Under the pieces are notes generated by a model that saw only the letters and a program-made list of their open reading frames with translations, was not told the origin of the DNA and did no database searches. DNA of 13,031 nucleotides, from UHGV virus genome UHGV-0124295; one strand, given 5' to 3'. The stretch's first letter is position 1, and each line of letters begins with the position of its first letter. Source of the DNA: a virus. A program made the translations under genes and the position numbers. Positions 1,354-11,852 of the stretch are shown one piece after another.

Positions 1354-1493
1354 ACGTCCTCCTTTTCCTGCGGTAGTGGTAACACCCCTGTTGGTGTTCT
1401 TTCACGCCGGAGACACCATCGATTCCAGTAAGGTTGATTTGGTCGGAAGCGGTTATCTTCTTTGCATTCACCGCACCGATAACATCGCATCAT
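1320..1493 (-). CDS. ninD: NinD-like small zinc-finger-type protein (57 aa)
   Basis: [60 protein letters not shown] 1493..1491 overlaps the ninC stop TGA 1492..1490. The track ORF 1320..1544 has an upstream extension into ninC that is rejected. Length and position match lambda ninD. Confidence 0.6.
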
Positions 1494-2362
1494 GCAGCTT
1501 CCCTCCCGAAGTCGAAATAAAGCTGCCCTCCAAATATTTCGCATGACTCAGAACAAGAGCCGGTATCGAATCTTTTAGCTCGTACCATGTCCTGATACAG
1601 GGCTTGATAATCATTTTCTGAATACATTTTCGCGATACCATCCAGCGACATTCTTCCTCGGTACATAATCTCCTTTGGTGTTTCCCGATGTCCGTCACGC
1701 ACATGCGATCCCGTGATGACCTCATTAAAAACACGCTGCAATCCCTCCTCATCTTTACAGGCAAGTCCGATTTTTTGCGTTGATTTTTTAATGCAGAATA
1801 TGCAGTTACCGAGATGTTCCGGTATTTGCAAATCGAATGGTTGTTGCTTCCACCATGCGAGGATATCTTCCTTCTCAAAGTCTGACAGTTCAGCAAGATA
1901 TCTGATTCCAGGCTTTGGCTTTAGCCGCTTCGGTTCATCAGCTCTGATGCCAATCCACGTGGTGTAATTCCCTCGCCCGAAATGGTCATCACAGTATTTG
2001 GTGAAGGGAACGAGTTTTAATCTGTCAGTGCAGAACGCGCCGCCGACGTATGGAGTGCCATATTTTTTTACCATATCGATAAATGGCTTCAGAACAGGCA
2101 GTCGCGTCTGAATATCCTTTGGTTCCCATACCGTATAACCATTTGGCTGCCCAAGCTCTGGGTTGATATCAACCTGCAATACGGTGAGCGGTATATCCCA
2201 GAACTTCACAACTTCCCTGACAAACCGATATGTCATTGGATGTTCACAACCTGTATCCATGAAAACGTAATGCACGTCTTCACCTGCCCGTCGCTTTTGC
2301 TCCATTAGCCAGAGCAAATATGCTGACGTCCTGCCACCGGAGAAACTAACGACATTTATCAT
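1490..2362 (-). CDS. ninC: NinC, PAPS-reductase-like/phosphoadenosine phosphosulfate reductase family protein (290 aa)
   Basis: Track ORF 1490..2422; the true start is the internal [18 protein letters not shown]... at 2362..2360, which overlaps the ninB stop (ATGA). From memory near-identical to lambda NinC. Confidence 0.85.
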
Positions 2363-2799
2363 GCAGCCCTGTCTCCCCATCGCGCTTTCCACTCCAGAGC
2401 CAGTCGCGCTTCGTCTGACCACTTAACGCCACGCTCTGTACCGAATGCCTGTATAAGCTCTAATAGCTCCGCAAATTCGCTTACACGCATCCTGCTGGTT
2501 GACTGGCCTATTACCACAAAGCCATTCCCGGCAAGGTTAGGAACAACATCCTGCTGCTTTAATGCTGCGGTAAACACACACTTCCAGCTTTCTGCATCCA
2601 GCCAGCGACCATGCCATTCAACCTGACGAGAGACGTCACCAAGGCAAGCCCAAAGCTTTCGATTCTGGTCTAAGCTGCGGTTGCGTTCCTGAATGGTTAC
2701 TACGATTGGTTTGGTTGGGTCTGGAAGGATTTGCTGTACCGCGTGAATAGCGTTTTGCTGATGTGCTGGAGATCGAATTTCAAAGGTTAGTTTTTTCAT
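2359..2799 (-). CDS. ninB: NinB/Orf recombination mediator (146 aa)
   Basis: MKKLTFEIRSPAHQQNAIHAVQQILPDPTKP... matches lambda NinB (Orf) from memory. RBS GAGGGA lies upstream of ATG 2799. Confidence 0.9.
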   Translation of the reverse strand: MKKLTFEIRSPAHQQNAIHAVQQILPDPTKPIVVTIQERNRSLDQNRKLWACLGDVSRQVEWHGRWLDAESWKCVFTAALKQQDVVPNLAGNGFVVIGQSTSRMRVSEFAELLELIQAFGTERGVKWSDEARLALEWKARWGDRAA

Positions 2800-3073: not shown

Positions 3074-4450
3074 TCATACGTCAGCCCCTTGTGCATATCG
3101 TCTGCCACGTGCAGCGGGTGCATTTGATGTTGTGCAAATCTGTCTGGCTTCATCCTGATCACATGCAACAAAGTGTCCGTTGCAGAACCGCTGGTAAACC
3201 GTACCAAGCGAGCCAAAACGGTTTTTCGTCACAATGATTTCAGCAAATGGCGCGGCGCTACTGTTCTCGTCATATACCGCTTCCCGATAGAGCATGATGA
3301 TTGAGTCTGCGTCCTGTTCAATGCTTCCTGAATCACGCAAATCTGCGTTTGTCGGGCGTTTGTTTGGTCGCTTCTCAACATCGCGTGAAAGCTGACTTAG
3401 GGAGATAACTGGCGTTTTCAGGTCTTTCGCCATCGCCTTCAGGCTTCCGGAGATGTGAGCAATTGCGAGGTCGTTGCGGTCTGCTTTCGGCTTCTCAATC
3501 AGGCCAAGATAATCCGCCATGATGAGTGAGAGGTTTGGATTTTCCTGTTTGTGCCGTTCTGCGATTGAGCGAATTTCTTCGACCGATAACCGCGAGGCAT
3601 CGACTACCCATACATCCAAATCTGCAAGCTGACTCATGCCGTTAGCAACACGCGCCCAGCCTTCGTCATCCATCGATGCAGGATTTCGCAGTACGCTAAC
3701 CGACATCCTCCCGGCGTTGGCAATGCTTCGCTCTGCAATCTGCAATGCGCTCATTTCCATCGAGAAAATCAACACTCCGCGCCGGACATCAGAACCAGGA
3801 ATAACGCGGCTTGCCACGCCTTCGGCAATCTTCAGCGCCAGTTCGGTTTTCCCCATACCAGGACGAGCGGCGATAATCACCAGGTCTTCTGCGTTCATCC
3901 CTCCGGTGATAGCGTCAAGTTCTTCGATTCCGGTCTTCAGGGTATCTGACTCTTCTCCGTTCCTCAGACGCCTGTCAAGCGTGTCAGTGTAGTCGGTGAT
4001 GATTTCCCCTAACCGTACAGGTTTAACCTCGTCACGGGGCTTTCTGATGGCTGAAAGACGCTTTACAAGCTCATCCATCGCCTGACTCGATGCGTCGATG
4101 GTTCCGCTCTGAATTGGTTCACGCATTTCATCCATGATTTCCAGCACCAGACGGCGGTGATAGTTATCCGCGACCATTCCGGCATATCCCTTCAGGTTTG
4201 CGGCACTCGGGCAGTTTTTGCTGGTCATCAGGATTGACGTGAAATGCTCCTCTCCGCACGCCTCGGCAACCATCAGCGCGTCGATTAGGTTTCTGTTTCT
4301 CGCCTGCTTGCGGATAACCTCGAAGGCTTTCCGGTAGAGCGGAATTGAAAACGCTTCCGGCTCAAGCGTTGCCAGAACGTCACTGGCGGTTGGAGTTAAT
4401 CCACCAATCAGCAGGCCACCGATAACGCTCGCTTCGATATCCTGTCTCAT
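3074..4450 (-). CDS. Replicative DNA helicase, DnaB family (P22 gp12-like)
   Basis: 458-aa ORF with Walker A ([16 protein letters not shown]) and DnaB-like N-terminal and RecA-like C-terminal architecture. ATG 4450..4448 overlaps the stop of the O-like gene (ATGA). Confidence 0.85.
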
Positions 4451-5394
4451 GCAATCCCCCTGTCTGCAAACTTCCCTTCCCGAACTCCCGTTAACGAATC
4501 TTCCCTCAGCAGGTAATCAAAATCAGCTGTCCAGCCCGTGTCGTTGTCTCCGAAGTAAAACGGCTTGGCCTGATGCACAAACGCCCTGACATACGCTCTG
4601 AAACCGTCCACGTTTGGCGTTTTCAGTTGCGGGATGATTTTCTTCAGGCGGCGTTTGCGTTTCTCGTTGACCGCAACAGCGTGTGGAAGTCTGTCACCGA
4701 CTTCGGTGTTGTAGGCGTTCAGGAAGGATTCGTAGTCGATTCGTTCTGCCTTGCGACGTTCAGGTTTAACCTGCCCATCGCCTCCCCCATTGGGGGGTAG
4801 GGGGGTATTATTTATATTCTTGTTAATACCTTCTTGTTCATGATGTGCGGTTGTTTGTGCGGCTTCATGTGCGCTTTCATGTGCGGCATGTACTCTGAAA
4901 GCCGCGCCATTGCTGGCTTCGTCATGTGCGGCATCATGTGCGGTTGTTTGTGCGGCTTCATGTGCGGGTGAATTGTCCATTTTTTGAGCGTATTCATGGT
5001 AATTTGTGATGGTGATCACACGACCTTTTTGCTTCTCTCCATCAATGGAGATCATCCCCTCTTTCACAAAAACCTGAAGCATCCGCTCAACCTGATCACG
5101 GCTTGCCGGCTTGCCATGCCTGTCGCATAACTGAAGACCTAAATCAGCTGCTGTCACAACCAGTTGACCGGGTTGCAGATGCCATTCATGACCTTTGAAA
5201 TTCGCTTTGTATGGCTTTCTGGCGGCATTCAGGAGAAGGTTTTCCCACAGGGTGCGAAGATAAACATCTTTCGCCCATGACTGTTTCAGAATGCTCCGGT
5301 ACAACGGAATGTAACCAGTTTTCTGGTTCTCCATCCTGTTGCTCCTGCGCTCGTGTGCGGCGCTGAAATCGTAGATTTTTGCTGTATTGCTCAT
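4447..5394 (-). CDS. Replication initiator, lambda O / P22 gp18-like
   Basis: 315 aa; N-terminus [10 protein letters not shown] resembles lambda O (MTNTAKILNF). The central low-complexity repeats ([17 protein letters not shown]...) are encoded by the iteron DNA. Position upstream of the helicase fits an initiator-helicase module. Confidence 0.8.
4844..4967. repeat. Iteron array of the putative replication origin inside the O-like gene
   Basis: Eight copies of a TGTGCG(G/C) core at a 12-bp period in two clusters (4844, 4856, 4868, 4880 and 4925, 4937, 4949, 4961), followed in the gene direction by an AT-rich stretch (4806-4830) and a C5-ATT-G6 inverted repeat (4784-4805). Confidence 0.6.
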
Positions 5395-5396
5395 AA

Positions 5397-5669
5397 CTAC
5401 CTGCCTTGACGAAAGACCTTAAGAACATCGTTAAACTGACTTACGGATATGTCTTCTTTGAGCAGCTTTTCCAGAAATGCGTTTGGAATGAACGTATATC
5501 CCTCCTCTTTTGGTAGGGACGGGAGCAACGCCCTCGCCTCAGCCTTCAGAAGCTCAGTTCTGGCAACTTTCACAAAAGAGATTTGAGTTCTTTCATCAAT
5601 GGAACGAAGGAAGCGCAAACGCTTAGCTTCTTTGTGTGTATCAGGTGGATTAAAGCCTTTGTTTCGCAT
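5397..5669 (-). CDS. Hypothetical protein (90 aa) between cII and the O-like gene
   Basis: MRNKGFNPPDTHKEAKRLRFLRSIDERTQISFVKVARTELLKAEARALLPSLPKEEGYTFIPNAFLEKLLKEDISVSQFNDVLKVFRQGR. RBS GAGG lies 7 nt before ATG 5669..5667; stop TAG is 2 nt before the O ATG. The track ORF 5397..5942 has a non-coding N-terminal extension. Confidence 0.5.
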   Translation of the reverse strand: MRNKGFNPPDTHKEAKRLRFLRSIDERTQISFVKVARTELLKAEARALLPSLPKEEGYTFIPNAFLEKLLKEDISVSQFNDVLKVFRQGR

Positions 5670-5679
5670 ATAATTACCT

Positions 5680-5747
5680 CGTTGGATGTTATTAAAATTC
5701 CATTTGGATTTGTTCAGAACGCTCGGTTGCCGCCGGGCGTTTTTTGT
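5680..5747 (+). ncRNA. oop: oop-like antisense RNA ending in a t_oop-like intrinsic terminator
   Basis: Plus-strand CCATTTGGATTTGTTCAGAACGCTCGGTTGCCGCCGGGCGTTTTTTGTT matches the 3' half of lambda OOP RNA from memory (terminator hairpin 5720-5739 plus T-run). A TATAAT -10 candidate lies at 5669-5674. The 5' end is estimated; the RNA is antisense to the cII 3' end. Confidence 0.5.
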
Positions 5748-5985
5748 TGGTGAGAATCGAAGCAACTTGTCGTGCCAATCGAGCCATATCGTCGTCAACG
5801 ACGCCCCATTCAAGAACAGCAAGCAGCATTGAGAACTTTGGAATCCAGTCCCTCTTCCACCTGCTGATCTGCGACTTATCAACTCCAACAGCTTCCGCTG
5901 TCTTCTCAGTTCCAAGCATTGCGATTTTGTTAAGCAACGCACTCTCGATTCTTAGAGCCTCGTTGCGTTTGTTTGCACGAACCAT
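5692..5985 (-). CDS. cII: Transcriptional activator CII
   Basis: Track ORF 5692..6072; the true start is the internal MVRANKRNEALRIESALLNKIAMLGTEKTAEAVGVDKSQISRWKRDWIPKF... at 5985, which from memory is essentially lambda CII (97 aa). Lambda-like RBS context TTAAGGAAATACTTACATATG. Confidence 0.9.
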   Translation of the reverse strand: MVRANKRNEALRIESALLNKIAMLGTEKTAEAVGVDKSQISRWKRDWIPKFSMLLAVLEWGVVDDDMARLARQVASILTNKKRPAATERSEQIQMEF

Positions 5986-5995
5986 ATGTAAGTAT
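5963..5995 (+). promoter_or_regulatory. pRE-like CII-dependent promoter (TTGC-N6-TTGC)
   Basis: TTGCGTTTGTTTGC at 5963-5976 on the plus strand, inside the cII 5' end and oriented toward cro/c2, as for lambda pRE. The -10 is not well defined. Confidence 0.45.
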
Positions 5996-6042
5996 TTCCT
6001 TAACAAATAAGAAGTTATGCGCATCAACTTATGCGCGTTGTA

Positions 6043-6086
6043 TTCCCGCATTTCGGCGGGAATGAGGACCATGACTGTTAAAGAGC
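6043..6086 (-). promoter_or_regulatory. nutR-like site (boxA GCTCTTTAACA plus boxB hairpin)
   Basis: Minus strand, just downstream of the cro stop: GCTCTTTAACA (matches the rrn/nut boxA consensus), a 13-nt spacer, then hairpin TTCCCGC-CGAAAT-GCGGGAA. Nearly identical to the module downstream of pL. Confidence 0.6.
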
Positions 6087-6093
6087 AATTTGC

Positions 6094-6279
6094 TTATGCC
6101 GCTTTGCGGTAAGCGCTTTCTTGATACTTCAGGGCGCCAGCTGTAACGACTTCCAGTCGATAGGCGTCTTTCTCTGGGATGACTTCCTTCCACTGAGAGA
6201 CTGCTGCGTCGCTAATGCCTAACGCTTTAGCTACAGCACGCTGGGTTCCGAAGTGGTCGATAACATCTTTCTTGTACAT
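6094..6279 (-). CDS. cro: Cro repressor (P22-type)
   Basis: 61 aa, MYKKDVIDHFGTQRAVAKALGISDAAVSQWKEVIPEKDAYRLEVVTAGALKYQESAYRKAA, matching P22 Cro from memory. RBS GGAGCGAG; divergent from c2. Confidence 0.85.
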   Translation of the reverse strand: MYKKDVIDHFGTQRAVAKALGISDAAVSQWKEVIPEKDAYRLEVVTAGALKYQESAYRKAA

Positions 6280-6359: not shown

Positions 6360-7010
6360 ATGAAAACTCAATTGATGGGAGAGCGCATTCGCGCTCGGAG
6401 AAAAGAACTCAAGATCAGACAGGCCGCACTTGGAAAGATGGTCGGCGTGTCTAATGTTGCCATATCTCAGTGGGAACGCTCTGAGACAGAGCCAAATGGA
6501 GAGAATCTTCTCGCCCTGGCTAATGCGTTGAAGTGTTCCCCTGACTATCTGATGAAAGGAGAGGAAAGTCTTTCAAACATTGCCTATCACAGTAGGCATG
6601 ATCCAAGAGGGTCATACCCTCTGATTAGCTGGGTGAGCGCAGGATGCTGGATGGAAGCTGTAGAACCATATCATAAGCGTGCAATAGATAACTGGTACGA
6701 TACAACCGTAGACTGTTCAGAAGATTCGTTTTGGTTGGACGTGAAGGGAGACTCAATGACGGCTCCGGCCGGTCTCAGTATCCCTGAAGGAATGATAATA
6801 CTCGTCGATCCTGAAGTAGAGCCGCGTAACGGGAAACTGGTAGTTGCAAAGCTCGAAGGAGAAAACGAGGCAACTTTCAAGAAGTTAGTTATTGATGCAG
6901 GCAGGAAGTTTCTAAAACCACTTAACCCACAATATCCGATGATCGAGATCAACGGAAACTGCAAAATCATCGGCGTAGTTGTCGATGCAAAACTAGCAAA
7001 CCTTCCATAA
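6360..7010 (+). CDS. c2: Prophage repressor, P22 C2 / LexA-like S24 peptidase family
   Basis: 216 aa; N-terminal HTH (VGVSNVAISQWERSE), Ala-Gly autocleavage site (SAG) and C-terminal Ser/Lys peptidase fold (GDSM ... VVAKL). Resembles the P22 c2 repressor from memory. Confidence 0.88.
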   Translation: MKTQLMGERIRARRKELKIRQAALGKMVGVSNVAISQWERSETEPNGENLLALANALKCSPDYLMKGEESLSNIAYHSRHDPRGSYPLISWVSAGCWMEAVEPYHKRAIDNWYDTTVDCSEDSFWLDVKGDSMTAPAGLSIPEGMIILVDPEVEPRNGKLVVAKLEGENEATFKKLVIDAGRKFLKPLNPQYPMIEINGNCKIIGVVVDAKLANLP

Positions 7011-10270: not shown

Positions 10271-10777
10271 ATGGCAAGCAGAGGCGTAAATAAGGTGATT
10301 ATCCTTGGTCGGGTAGGACAAGACCCGGAAGTTCGATACTCACCATCAGGTACAGCGTTCGCTAACCTGACAATAGCCACGTCAGAACAATGGCGAGATA
10401 AAAATACTGGCGAGCAAAAGGAATTGACTGAATGGCATCGTGTTGCTGTATCCGGGAAACTGGCTGAGGTCGTGGGGCAGTATGTGAAAAAAGGTGATCA
10501 GATTTATTTCGAGGGAATGCTGAGAACCAGAAAGTGGAAAGACCAGTCAGGGCAAGACCGTTACACAACCGAGGTTCATGTCGGAATTAATGGCGTGATG
10601 CAAATGCTTGGCGGCATTGGCGACAGCAAACAACAAGCAGCCAGCAGGCAATCACAGAAGCCACAGCAGCAATCATCACCAGCACAACACAACGAACCTC
10701 CGATGGATTTTGACGACGATATACCCTTTGCACCAGTAACTCTCCCCTTCCCTCGTCACGCTATTCACGCAATTTAA
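10271..10777 (+). CDS. ssb: Single-stranded DNA-binding protein
   Basis: 168 aa; OB-fold N-terminus [44 protein letters not shown]... and Gln/Pro-rich linker. The acidic tail MDFDDDIPF is present but followed by 15 extra residues. Confidence 0.9.
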
Positions 10778-11265: not shown

Positions 11266-11852
11266 GCAACATCGACAAACAGGCGCAGCGTAAAGCAAAG
11301 GTAATCACAAAGGAATTTGTTGAGGAACACCTTCACTACGATGGGAAGGATTTTTTCTGGAAGAAGCGCGAACCAAGTTCGTTTTCTGACAGCCGCACAT
11401 GCAAGGTTTGGAATACTCGAATTGCAGGGAAGCGGGCCGGAGGAATCAGCGCTCAAGGTTATGTAGAAATTCAAATCAAAGGGAGTCGATATAAGGCTCA
11501 TAGATTAGCGTGGTGTCTTGTTCATGGCGATATACCAACAGACATGCAGGTTGATCACATTAACCACGACCGAACTGATAACCGAATAGAGAATCTGCGC
11601 CTTGTTGATAATCAGGGAAACCAAAAGAACTCTTCGATACGAAAGGACAACATTGGAGGCTGCACAGGTGTTACCTGGAATCCTAGCCATAAAAGATGGA
11701 TTGCCTACATACGCGAAAATGGTAAGCACAAGCACATTGGTAGCTTCATTAAATTCTCTGATGCTGTAAGAGCAAGAGAGGAAGCTCAGGCAAGGCTTGG
11801 ATTCCACATGAATCACGGCGCCGCTGGCATTCGCATCAAAGGAGGTGAGTAA
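11262..11852 (+). CDS. HNH endonuclease with C-terminal AP2-type DNA-binding domain
   Basis: HNH_3-like motif [16 protein letters not shown]...[27 protein letters not shown] and AP2-like [40 protein letters not shown]. Probable GTG start at 11262 after RBS GGAGG; the track start is GTG 11241. Confidence 0.78.

Follow-up and report, generated by a model that had tools for sequence, protein, structure and literature searches.

Here we describe a putative phage replication origin in UHGV virus genome UHGV-0124295, from which a stretch of 13,031 nucleotides (the window) was analysed and its repeat array compared with those of ~30 related prophages. We consider it likely, with a probability of roughly 80%, that positions 4784-4967 form the vegetative replication origin of a lambdoid prophage, situated within the linker-coding part of an O-like initiator gene. 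This reading is supported by homology, selection on the repeat core, co-variation of core and initiator, layout, a minimum of DNA stability, and co-inheritance of the initiator C-terminal domain with the helicase. A preliminary description had proposed a putative origin composed of iterons and an AT-rich tract placed inside an O-like gene in the order of lambda, and all of the computational tests run favour that proposal. The gene and the components of the candidate origin, in the direction of O transcription, are:

4447-5394, minus strand: O-like replication initiator gene, from the list of open reading frames (ORFs) and their translation; 315 amino acids from the long ORF
5334, minus strand: ATG, the initiator start common to all relatives (MENQK..., 295 amino acids)
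4925-4967, minus strand: iteron block A, promoter-proximal; four 12-bp units with the coding-strand core CCGCACA, starting on the plus strand at 4925, 4937, 4949 and 4961
4899-4920, minus strand: 22-bp spacer box, the first 22 bp of the 33-bp spacer between the blocks; coding strand GAAGCCAGCAATGGCGCGGCTT, consensus RAASCCAGYAATGRCGCGGCTT
4844-4886, minus strand: iteron block B, adjoining the AT-rich tract; four 12-bp units, with TGTGCGG (plus strand) at 4844, 4856 and 4880 and TGTGCGC at 4868
4806-4843, no strand assigned: AT-rich tract, the presumed DNA-unwinding element; its coding strand holds GAACAAGAA, common to all relatives
4784-4805, no strand assigned: G/C element, a C5-ATT-G6 inverted repeat plus a second G6; coding strand CCCCCCTACCCCCCAATGGGGG, encoding PLPPNGG

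Residues 20-132 of the long ORF match the Pfam family Phage_rep_O (E = 3.3e-15, over the curated cut-off), and the protein matches PHROG 345, "replication initiation O-like" (E = 2.7e-92). The gene shows 98-99% identity both to the O genes of CUS-3, JEP4, HF4s, Gally and Kapi1, all deposited as phage genomes, and to 48 deposited Shiga toxin 2a (Stx2a)-converting phages (LC616031 and others). The eight units occupy gene nucleotides 366-497, right after the region encoding the N-terminal domain (N-domain) and within a segment, residues 118-195, that is predicted to be disordered.

Sequence reading and a pattern search placed TGTGCGG on the plus strand at the seven positions listed above, the eighth in-register unit (4868-4874, TGTGCGC) differing by one mismatch. 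The spacing between units is 12, 12, 12, 45, 12, 12 and 12 bp, and Tandem Repeats Finder reported period-12 arrays at 4856-4887 and 4922-4967. The whole window contains nine matches to TGTGCGG against 1.5 expected, none of 200 shuffled sequences exceeded five, and seven of the nine matches are packed into 124 bp. All eight units are oriented head-to-tail in the same direction, and the 12-bp unit is asymmetric and without dyad symmetry. The preliminary description had counted eight copies at an exact 12-bp period in two clusters of four; its period, clusters and coordinates hold, but only seven of the copies are exact. Its other statements about the array were borne out: the repeats lie inside an O-like initiator gene, the minus-strand translation of the 315-residue protein shows that they generate four-residue protein repeats (AHEA/AQTT), and the unit differs from and is shorter than that of lambda (12 bp and asymmetric, as opposed to 18 bp and dyad-symmetric). 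Tandem Repeats Finder detected no other comparable array in the replication region of the window, and in all loci fetched the array is confined to the O gene. A "terminator-like" prediction at 4857-4874 corresponds simply to two adjoining iterons, and an Rfam scan of the whole window returned no RNA family, so that an RNA reading of the repeats gains no support.

The linker was also compared, codon by codon, among relatives collected from phage records, species-representative genomes and exact-protein look-ups. Family I comprises the window, Klebsiella phage 2 LV-2017 and prophages of Enterobacter, Trabulsiella, Superficieibacter and Sodalis (seven elements with 48 iterons; N-domain nucleotide identity 71-78%). 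The six bases C-GCA-CA are unchanged in 48/48 of these iterons. The first C of the core is the wobble base of a codon for Ala, Pro, Gly, Ser, Thr or Cys, which is always NNC; the following Ala codon is GCA in all 48 units, and after it comes CAT or CAA, for His or Gln. Elsewhere in the 12-bp unit the sequence is near random (0.15-0.6 bits), and third-position identity to the window in the neighbouring N-domain of the same genes is 0.46-0.60. Since wobble positions are invariant under changing residues, the reverse of what protein-level constraint produces, the core is under selection as a DNA sequence and not as a peptide.

The core also changes together with the protein that presumably reads it. 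In Family II, a sister group of ten elements with 76 iterons, the core is C-GCG-CAT or C-GAG-CAT, with the wobble G present in 75 of the 76 units and the middle base toggling between Ala and Glu. Six columns of the N-domain alignment split Families I and II perfectly; one of these, column 80, is Asp in Family I and His in Family II, and lies second in the predicted recognition helix. For three proteins the core was predicted from residue 80 before the DNA was read, and all three predictions were correct: P0063 (Asp80) has GCA in 6/6 units, and P0110 and P0115 (His80) have GCG or GAG in 12/12 units. Yersinia phage vB_YenM_29.18 (Asp80) has GCA in five of six units. Taken together, residue 80 agrees with the base at core position 6 (A or G) in 21/21 elements, with GCA-type cores in 9/9 elements with Asp and GCG-type cores in 12/12 with His. 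A second specificity determinant in the wing, Arg105/Thr105, was considered and rejected, as the Yersinia phage has Thr105 together with GCA-type cores. Two other families combine unrelated cores with correspondingly different N-domains, which have Gln or Lys at column 80: one with the core GAACC(A/T)(T/C)(C/G)(C/G) occurs in Pantoea and in some E. coli and Salmonella elements, and another with the core (G)AGGTAACAAA in Xenorhabdus, Photorhabdus and Pantoea. The four families encode unrelated repeat peptides (AH.., DEP.., EVTN..) at one 12-bp period.

The geometry of the locus is conserved across these families. Families I, II and IV share an arrangement of three or four units, an exact 45-bp step (33-bp spacer), three or four more units of unchanged orientation and then an AT tract containing GAACAAGAA; many relatives carry blocks of three. 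Family III keeps the 12-bp period, the spacer box and a similar AT-rich tract, with a core distance of 57 bp from block to block. After its last iteron, each of the 25 elements compared has a tract of 14-25% GC. The preliminary description had noted a 25-bp AT-rich stretch 3' of the iterons at 4806-4830, and a direct count confirms it at 16% G+C; GC content drops to 0.30 in the 40-bp interval 4810-4849, and by nearest-neighbour energy 4805-4829 is the least stable 25-mer in the 13-kb window, below all of the intergenic operator regions. A perfect 7-bp inverted repeat, GGTATTA/TAATACC (4804-4810 and 4824-4830), flanks the 13 bp with the highest A+T content in the presumed unwinding element. The spacer box is conserved in Families I, II and IV (25 unique spacers), where its third codon positions hold 1.23 bits of information against 1.5 for first and 1.28 for second positions, and it is present, by eye, in two Family III elements. 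It was also seen at the same position in loci L002, L005-L031 and L117, among families with different iterons. Inspection by eye, with no formal scan, recognised no DnaA or IHF consensus in the spacer box or in the 12-bp units.

The G/C element had been put forward as part of the origin. Its letters are as described (C5 at 4784-4788, ATT, G6 at 4792-4797, TA and G6 at 4800-4805, with inverted-repeat arms CCCCCA/TGGGGG) and its position is that of the lambda palindrome, but it is not specific to this set of iterons. A CCCCC-N3/4-GGGGG element after the AT tract is also found in HK97, P22 gene 18, P0063 and P0120, and most relatives with a lambda-type C-terminal domain (C-domain) have the lambda palindrome sequence in its place. 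In HK97, P22 and P0120 its neighbours are quite different iterons, and relatives that join the iteron type of the window to a lambda-type C-domain do without it; the element belongs with the P22/HK97 C-terminal and helicase module and not with the iteron set. Some relatives with a P22-type C-domain (e.g. L021) do not have the G/C palindrome, and whether it is necessary is doubtful.

An AlphaFold2 model of the initiator built from 15 homologues (mean predicted local distance difference test score, pLDDT, 60) is consistent with a protein of two domains joined by a flexible linker. Numbered from MENQK, these are:

4984-5334, minus strand: predicted N-terminal winged-helix DNA-binding domain, residues 1-117
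4447-4783, minus strand: C-terminal domain of the P22 gp18/HK97 O type, from DNA identity to HK97-type O genes and the helical model

The N-domain model has block-mean pLDDT values of 66-89 across residues 11-110 and contains helices at 62-68 and 79-91 and a beta hairpin at 95-101/104-109; residues 79-91 are the predicted recognition helix and residues 95-109 the predicted wing. The linker (residues 118-195), the first part of which is encoded by the eight repeats, is disordered in the model, with block-mean pLDDT of 25-33 over residues 121-190, and the C-domain is helical over residues 201-285. A Foldseek search of the PDB returned winged-helix regulators exclusively, all of them weak matches (E at least 0.07) that bear on fold class only, and a sequence search of solved structures gave a chance-level match at most. 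A tblastn search with the N-domain reached replication proteins of Lactobacillus phages phiAT3 and Lrm1 and of an uncultured siphovirus (H145-H148) at ~31% identity; their annotation is that of DnaD-like helicase loaders, a name also carried by several of the PHROGs that the initiator matches.

The initiator gene is a mosaic, and its two parts have separate relatives. Across positions 4447-4821 (C-domain, G/C element and distal AT tract), and nowhere else in the gene, the DNA matches O of HK97, HK446, mEp213, Stx2 phage 1717 and BTP1, whose N-domains and iterons are unlike those of the window, at 95-97% identity, and P22 gene 18 at 68%. Positions 4811-5347 (proximal AT tract, iterons and N-domain) are 80% identical to Klebsiella phages that have a lambda-type C-domain (SSENSGESSD...) and a lambda P homologue. 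The ends of these two identity blocks place the mosaic joint inside the AT tract, at ~4811-4821. A P22/HK97-type C-domain is followed by a DnaB-like helicase gene in the window and in loci L119-L121, and a lambda-type C-domain by a lambda P homologue (Phage_lambda_P) in Klebsiella phage 2 LV-2017 and Yersinia phage vB_YenM_29.18; the type of C-domain is inherited together with the type of helicase or loader. Among complete E. coli genomes the O/ori module is present in 283 of 5,426, and it occurs as well in deposited genomes of Escherichia, Klebsiella and Yersinia phages.

We infer the binding, stoichiometry, unwinding, helicase loading and origin activity of this element as follows. The N-terminal winged-helix domain of the initiator would bind the eight head-to-tail 12-bp iterons, with their core CCGCACA, in two blocks of four. 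The lack of dyad symmetry in the units, together with the blocks of three in many relatives, suggests that one domain probably occupies each 12-bp unit. The resulting nucleoprotein complex of initiator and iterons would destabilise the adjoining AT-rich tract at 4806-4843, and the P22/HK97-type C-domain, which presumably contacts the phage helicase, would then recruit the phage's own DnaB-like helicase (3074-4450).

Several observations weigh against this model or limit it. In the open-access literature searched, neither binding nor origin activity has been reported for this type of iteron, and the binding mode cannot simply be transferred from lambda O, as the iterons are unlike the 18-20-bp dyads of lambda, P22 and HK97. 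Confidence in the structural model is only moderate (mean pLDDT 60), and its matches to known folds are weak (E at least 0.07). Among 69 unique close relatives, depletion of polymorphism at core sites is not significant (6/64 core sites vary, compared with 121/824 elsewhere); the cores of units A1, A4 and B1 vary and those of A2, A3 and B2-B4 never do, a pattern that is suggestive. Natural variants of the initiator carry 3, 4, 5, 4+4, 4+5+4 or 4+5+5+4 units (range 3-18), and these numbers, together with the variants of A1, A4 and B1, imply that individual units are dispensable and that recombination shapes the array. Variation in unit number is consistent with recombination between repeats; a series of linker lengths (P0001, P0008, P0022, P0038, P0042, P0045 and P0048) includes duplications and deletions of a 93-bp (31-residue) block. 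Concerted evolution of tandem repeats could also contribute to the uniformity of cores within an element, but it does not explain the free variation of flanking positions in the same units.

A sceptical reader might regard the repeats as the by-product of a low-complexity, slippage-prone linker with no cis-acting function as DNA, the origin lying elsewhere or not being sequence-specific. The predicted disorder of the encoded segment, the range of 3 to 18 units among natural variants and the absence of strong depletion of polymorphism at core sites among close relatives would all fit such an account. We nevertheless regard it as very unlikely, because selection on the protein would leave the opposite pattern to that observed, in which wobble bases are invariant while the encoded residues differ. 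Slippage would also have to account for four families with unrelated peptides sharing one 12-bp period, three of them with identical spacing, for a core that co-varies with the recognition helix in 21/21 elements, and for the iterons of lambda, P22 and HK97 at the equivalent position in the gene.

Granting that the repeats are genuine binding sites of the initiator, their role could be mainly regulatory, through titration or handcuffing, autoregulation or interference with related phages, with opening and loading taking place at a separate site. The iterons of plasmids also serve copy control (PMC4980987), ectopic copies of the lambda ori or its iterons inhibit lambda-type phages (PMC3349717; PMC4488673), and a two-block layout with extra, dispensable units would suit titration. 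Yet it is the block adjoining the AT tract that is invariant, the weakest DNA of the window lies directly beside block B, the order of iterons followed by AT tract is kept in every relative, and the replication region holds no second array or comparable AT-rich non-coding site, so that we judge a mainly regulatory role improbable, if the least so of these alternatives. It is more improbable still, and indeed hardly credible, that the repeats are bound by some other host or phage protein in place of the O-like initiator. The 22-bp spacer box does give such a factor a foothold, being common to families with different iterons and so an improbable target of the variable recognition helix, and it may bind a common factor; the cores themselves change with the initiator N-domain and residue 80, and not with host genus or C-terminal module, and the units hold no DnaA-box or IHF-like consensus by eye (no formal scan).

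The origin reading can be set against several known systems. Lambdoid origins are situated in the middle of O (PMC7466680; PMC8022706) and consist of iterons and an AT-rich tract (PMC7466680), and lambda, P22 and L each carry different repeats inside their O or 18 genes (PMC8022706). In lambda, P22 and HK97 the iterons occupy the same part of the gene as in the window (annotated for lambda, and by comparison of the repeats for P22 and HK97). With lambda the window shares the Pfam family of the N-domain, an origin in the linker-coding middle of the gene, the order of iterons, AT-rich tract and inverted repeat along O transcription (PMC7466680), and the matching of N-domain to iterons and of C-domain to helicase or loader. 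It differs in that the iterons of lambda are four dyad-symmetric sites of 18 bp at spacings of 20, 24 and 23 bp, compared with eight asymmetric 12-bp units of another core sequence in two blocks with a conserved 33-bp spacer; in its palindrome (lambda GTCAGAGAATTC/GAATCCTCTGAC, window C5-N3-G5); and in its helicase partner, a phage DnaB-like helicase as opposed to lambda P with host DnaB. Beyond the leader, BLASTP barely detects any protein identity to lambda O. The preliminary description had stated that the arrangement of iterons, AT-rich stretch and inverted repeat copies the lambda ori layout. This is correct for the order of the elements and their position within the gene but not for the architecture of the iterons, which in lambda, P22 and HK97 consists of four 18-20-bp dyads spaced 20-24 bp; more generally, the style of these phages (4-6 dyad-symmetric iterons of ~18-20 bp, about two helical turns apart) is absent from the window.

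P22 gene 18 and HK97 O resemble the window in their homologous C-domain, distal AT tract and CCCCC..GGGGG element, and in the DnaB-like helicase gene that follows the initiator gene; direct comparison thus places the right half of the window origin (AT tract, CCCCC-N3/4-GGGGG and gp18-type C-domain) with the gene-18 type of P22 and HK97. They differ in having a lambda-style N-domain and four dyad-symmetric sites spaced 23, 24 and 20 bp (TTAGC..GCTAA in HK97, TTTACCGA..TCGGTAAA in P22), the half that is replaced in the window by its own N-domain and iteron module. Phage L is P22-like, and its gene 18, a distant homologue of O, contains six imprecise 11-bp repeats proposed as the origin and is accompanied by a DnaB-type helicase (PMC8022706), but the sequence of these repeats (TGTCCAACGGA) differs from that of the window. 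A tblastn search with the window N-domain did not recover phage L, which therefore does not represent the same module. In the Shiga toxin phages 933W and P27 the origin likewise lies in O, extra iterons lengthen the O linker and the number of iterons affects replication (PMC7466680); these phages have six lambda-type iterons, and their iterons and O are near-identical to those of lambda. The Stx2a phages that match the window (LC616031 and others) have, by contrast, the 12-bp CCGCACA type and a DnaB-like helicase.

The repeats of iteron plasmids are ~17-22 bp long and lie outside the rep gene, whereas those of the window are 12 bp long and lie inside the coding sequence. The initiator gave no Rep_3 or RepA Pfam match and no sequence match to a solved structure, and neither Rep homology nor iterons outside a rep gene, which would mark a plasmid replicon, are found in the window. 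The systems of RepA, pi, TrfA and RepE nonetheless resemble the window in having direct repeats in one orientation, winged-helix initiators and an adjoining AT-rich unwinding element (see PMC4980987).

In kind, the feature is a textbook lambdoid in-gene origin that a specialist would expect, and the general picture of lambdoid replication is unchanged by it. The iteron type, the two-block layout, the spacer box and the Asp/His-to-A/G rule were, however, found undescribed in the open-access literature and annotations searched: nothing specific was found in that literature on the origins of CUS-3, HK620, Sf6 or Kapi1, and in the GenBank records of CUS-3, Kapi1 and Yersinia phage vB_YenM_29.18 the array carries no annotation as an origin or as a repeat. 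We tentatively raise the possibility, doubtful at present, that MENQK-type initiators and their origins form a distinct class of the lambda O superfamily, in which head-to-tail monomers each occupy 12 bp, the blocks flank a RAASCCAGYAATGRCGCGGCTT box read by a common factor (a host protein, or a surface that does not vary among the initiators), and specificity is set by very few residues, with Asp80 or His80 reading A or G at core position 6. If this were true, the class, together with the series of 3 to 18 units, would amount to a family of orthogonal, re-codable phage origins.

On a practical level, the origins of lambdoid phages beyond lambda and its close relatives have rarely been defined, and the O/ori module described here is common. 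Effective toxin production is reported to require that the Stx phages replicate (PMC7466680), which makes the cis element and its initiator relevant targets, and results obtained with the lambda-type origins of 933W and P27 should not be assumed to be valid for Stx2a phages that carry the 12-bp module. The comparative data also offer a clean natural case in which selection on DNA overrides the genetic code, with wobble bases more constrained than residues, and a candidate rule of recognition that relates one residue to one base (Asp80/His80 to A/G).

The element that carries the candidate origin is, judging from its sequence, a lambdoid prophage similar to CUS-3 and the Stx2a phages. The operon follows the lambdoid early-right order of cI, cro, cII, an oop-like terminator, O, helicase and ninB, and its other genes are:

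6360-7010, plus strand: cI-like repressor gene
6094-6279, minus strand: P22-type cro
5692-6072, minus strand: cII-like gene, named cII in phage CUS-3
3074-4450, minus strand: DnaB-like replicative helicase gene (Pfam DnaB_C, 9.5e-78; DnaB, 4.5e-13), overlapping the stop codon of the initiator gene

Homologues of the helicase are annotated as replicative helicase in CUS-3 and HK97, and the protein is presumed to be the partner of the initiator C-domain. The true O start codon may be that of the long ORF at 5394 or that of MENQK at 5334, which has AGGAG 7 nt upstream. The 20-codon leader of the long ORF (5335-5394, minus strand) resembles lambda O in its first ten codons (MTNTAKILNF) and looks like a lambda-type boundary sequence retained at a mosaic joint. 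A copy of TGTGCGG at 5354-5360 lies within this lambda-like leader and was rejected as a ninth iteron or autoregulatory site; P0086, a relative whose repeat peptides are of the Family III type, shares this leader peptide (SAAH), so that the leader copy does not track the type of iteron. A further copy at 11393 is isolated and outside the array.

Directly 5' of O, a 90-residue ORF (5397-5669, minus strand; PHROG 2519, unknown function, E = 1.9e-57; annotated as Kapi1_024) resembles residues 26-59 of lambda O in its last 34 residues (BLASTP E = 5e-4), and may correspond to the start of a lambda-type O N-domain, either as a remnant or as a small paralogue. Beyond it, a strong intrinsic-terminator-like hairpin, AGAACGCTCGGTTGCCGCCGGGCGTTTTTT (5716-5743, plus strand), is antisense to the 3' end of the cII-like gene. 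The hairpin had no match in the Rfam scan; it resembles the terminator of lambda oop RNA, and would imply an oop-like antisense RNA between cII and O.

A search of plasmids for a natural mini-replicon gave just circularised phage-sized records and one odd 5.5-kb circle, which do not amount to evidence of autonomous replication. The latter (L114, NZ_CP148879.1, positions 1-972) is a 5,555-bp circular Salmonella Infantis "plasmid" in which O is cut exactly after the G/C element, equivalent to window position 4777. Present on it are cI, cro, cII, the 90-residue ORF, the N-domain, the iteron region with an alteration in one core (DAEHDE), the AT tract and the palindrome, whereas the C-domain and the helicase are missing. 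The record may represent an assembly artefact, or else a mini-circle that relies on a helper prophage.

Elsewhere in the window, a 310-residue ORF with a PAPS-reductase domain (1490-2422, minus strand; Pfam E = 1e-8) adjoins ninB in the nin region, at a site where CUS-3 carries other genes. The early-left region contains an imperfect tandem repeat at 10638-10686, with a period of 21 and 2.3 copies at 74% matches and 16% indels.

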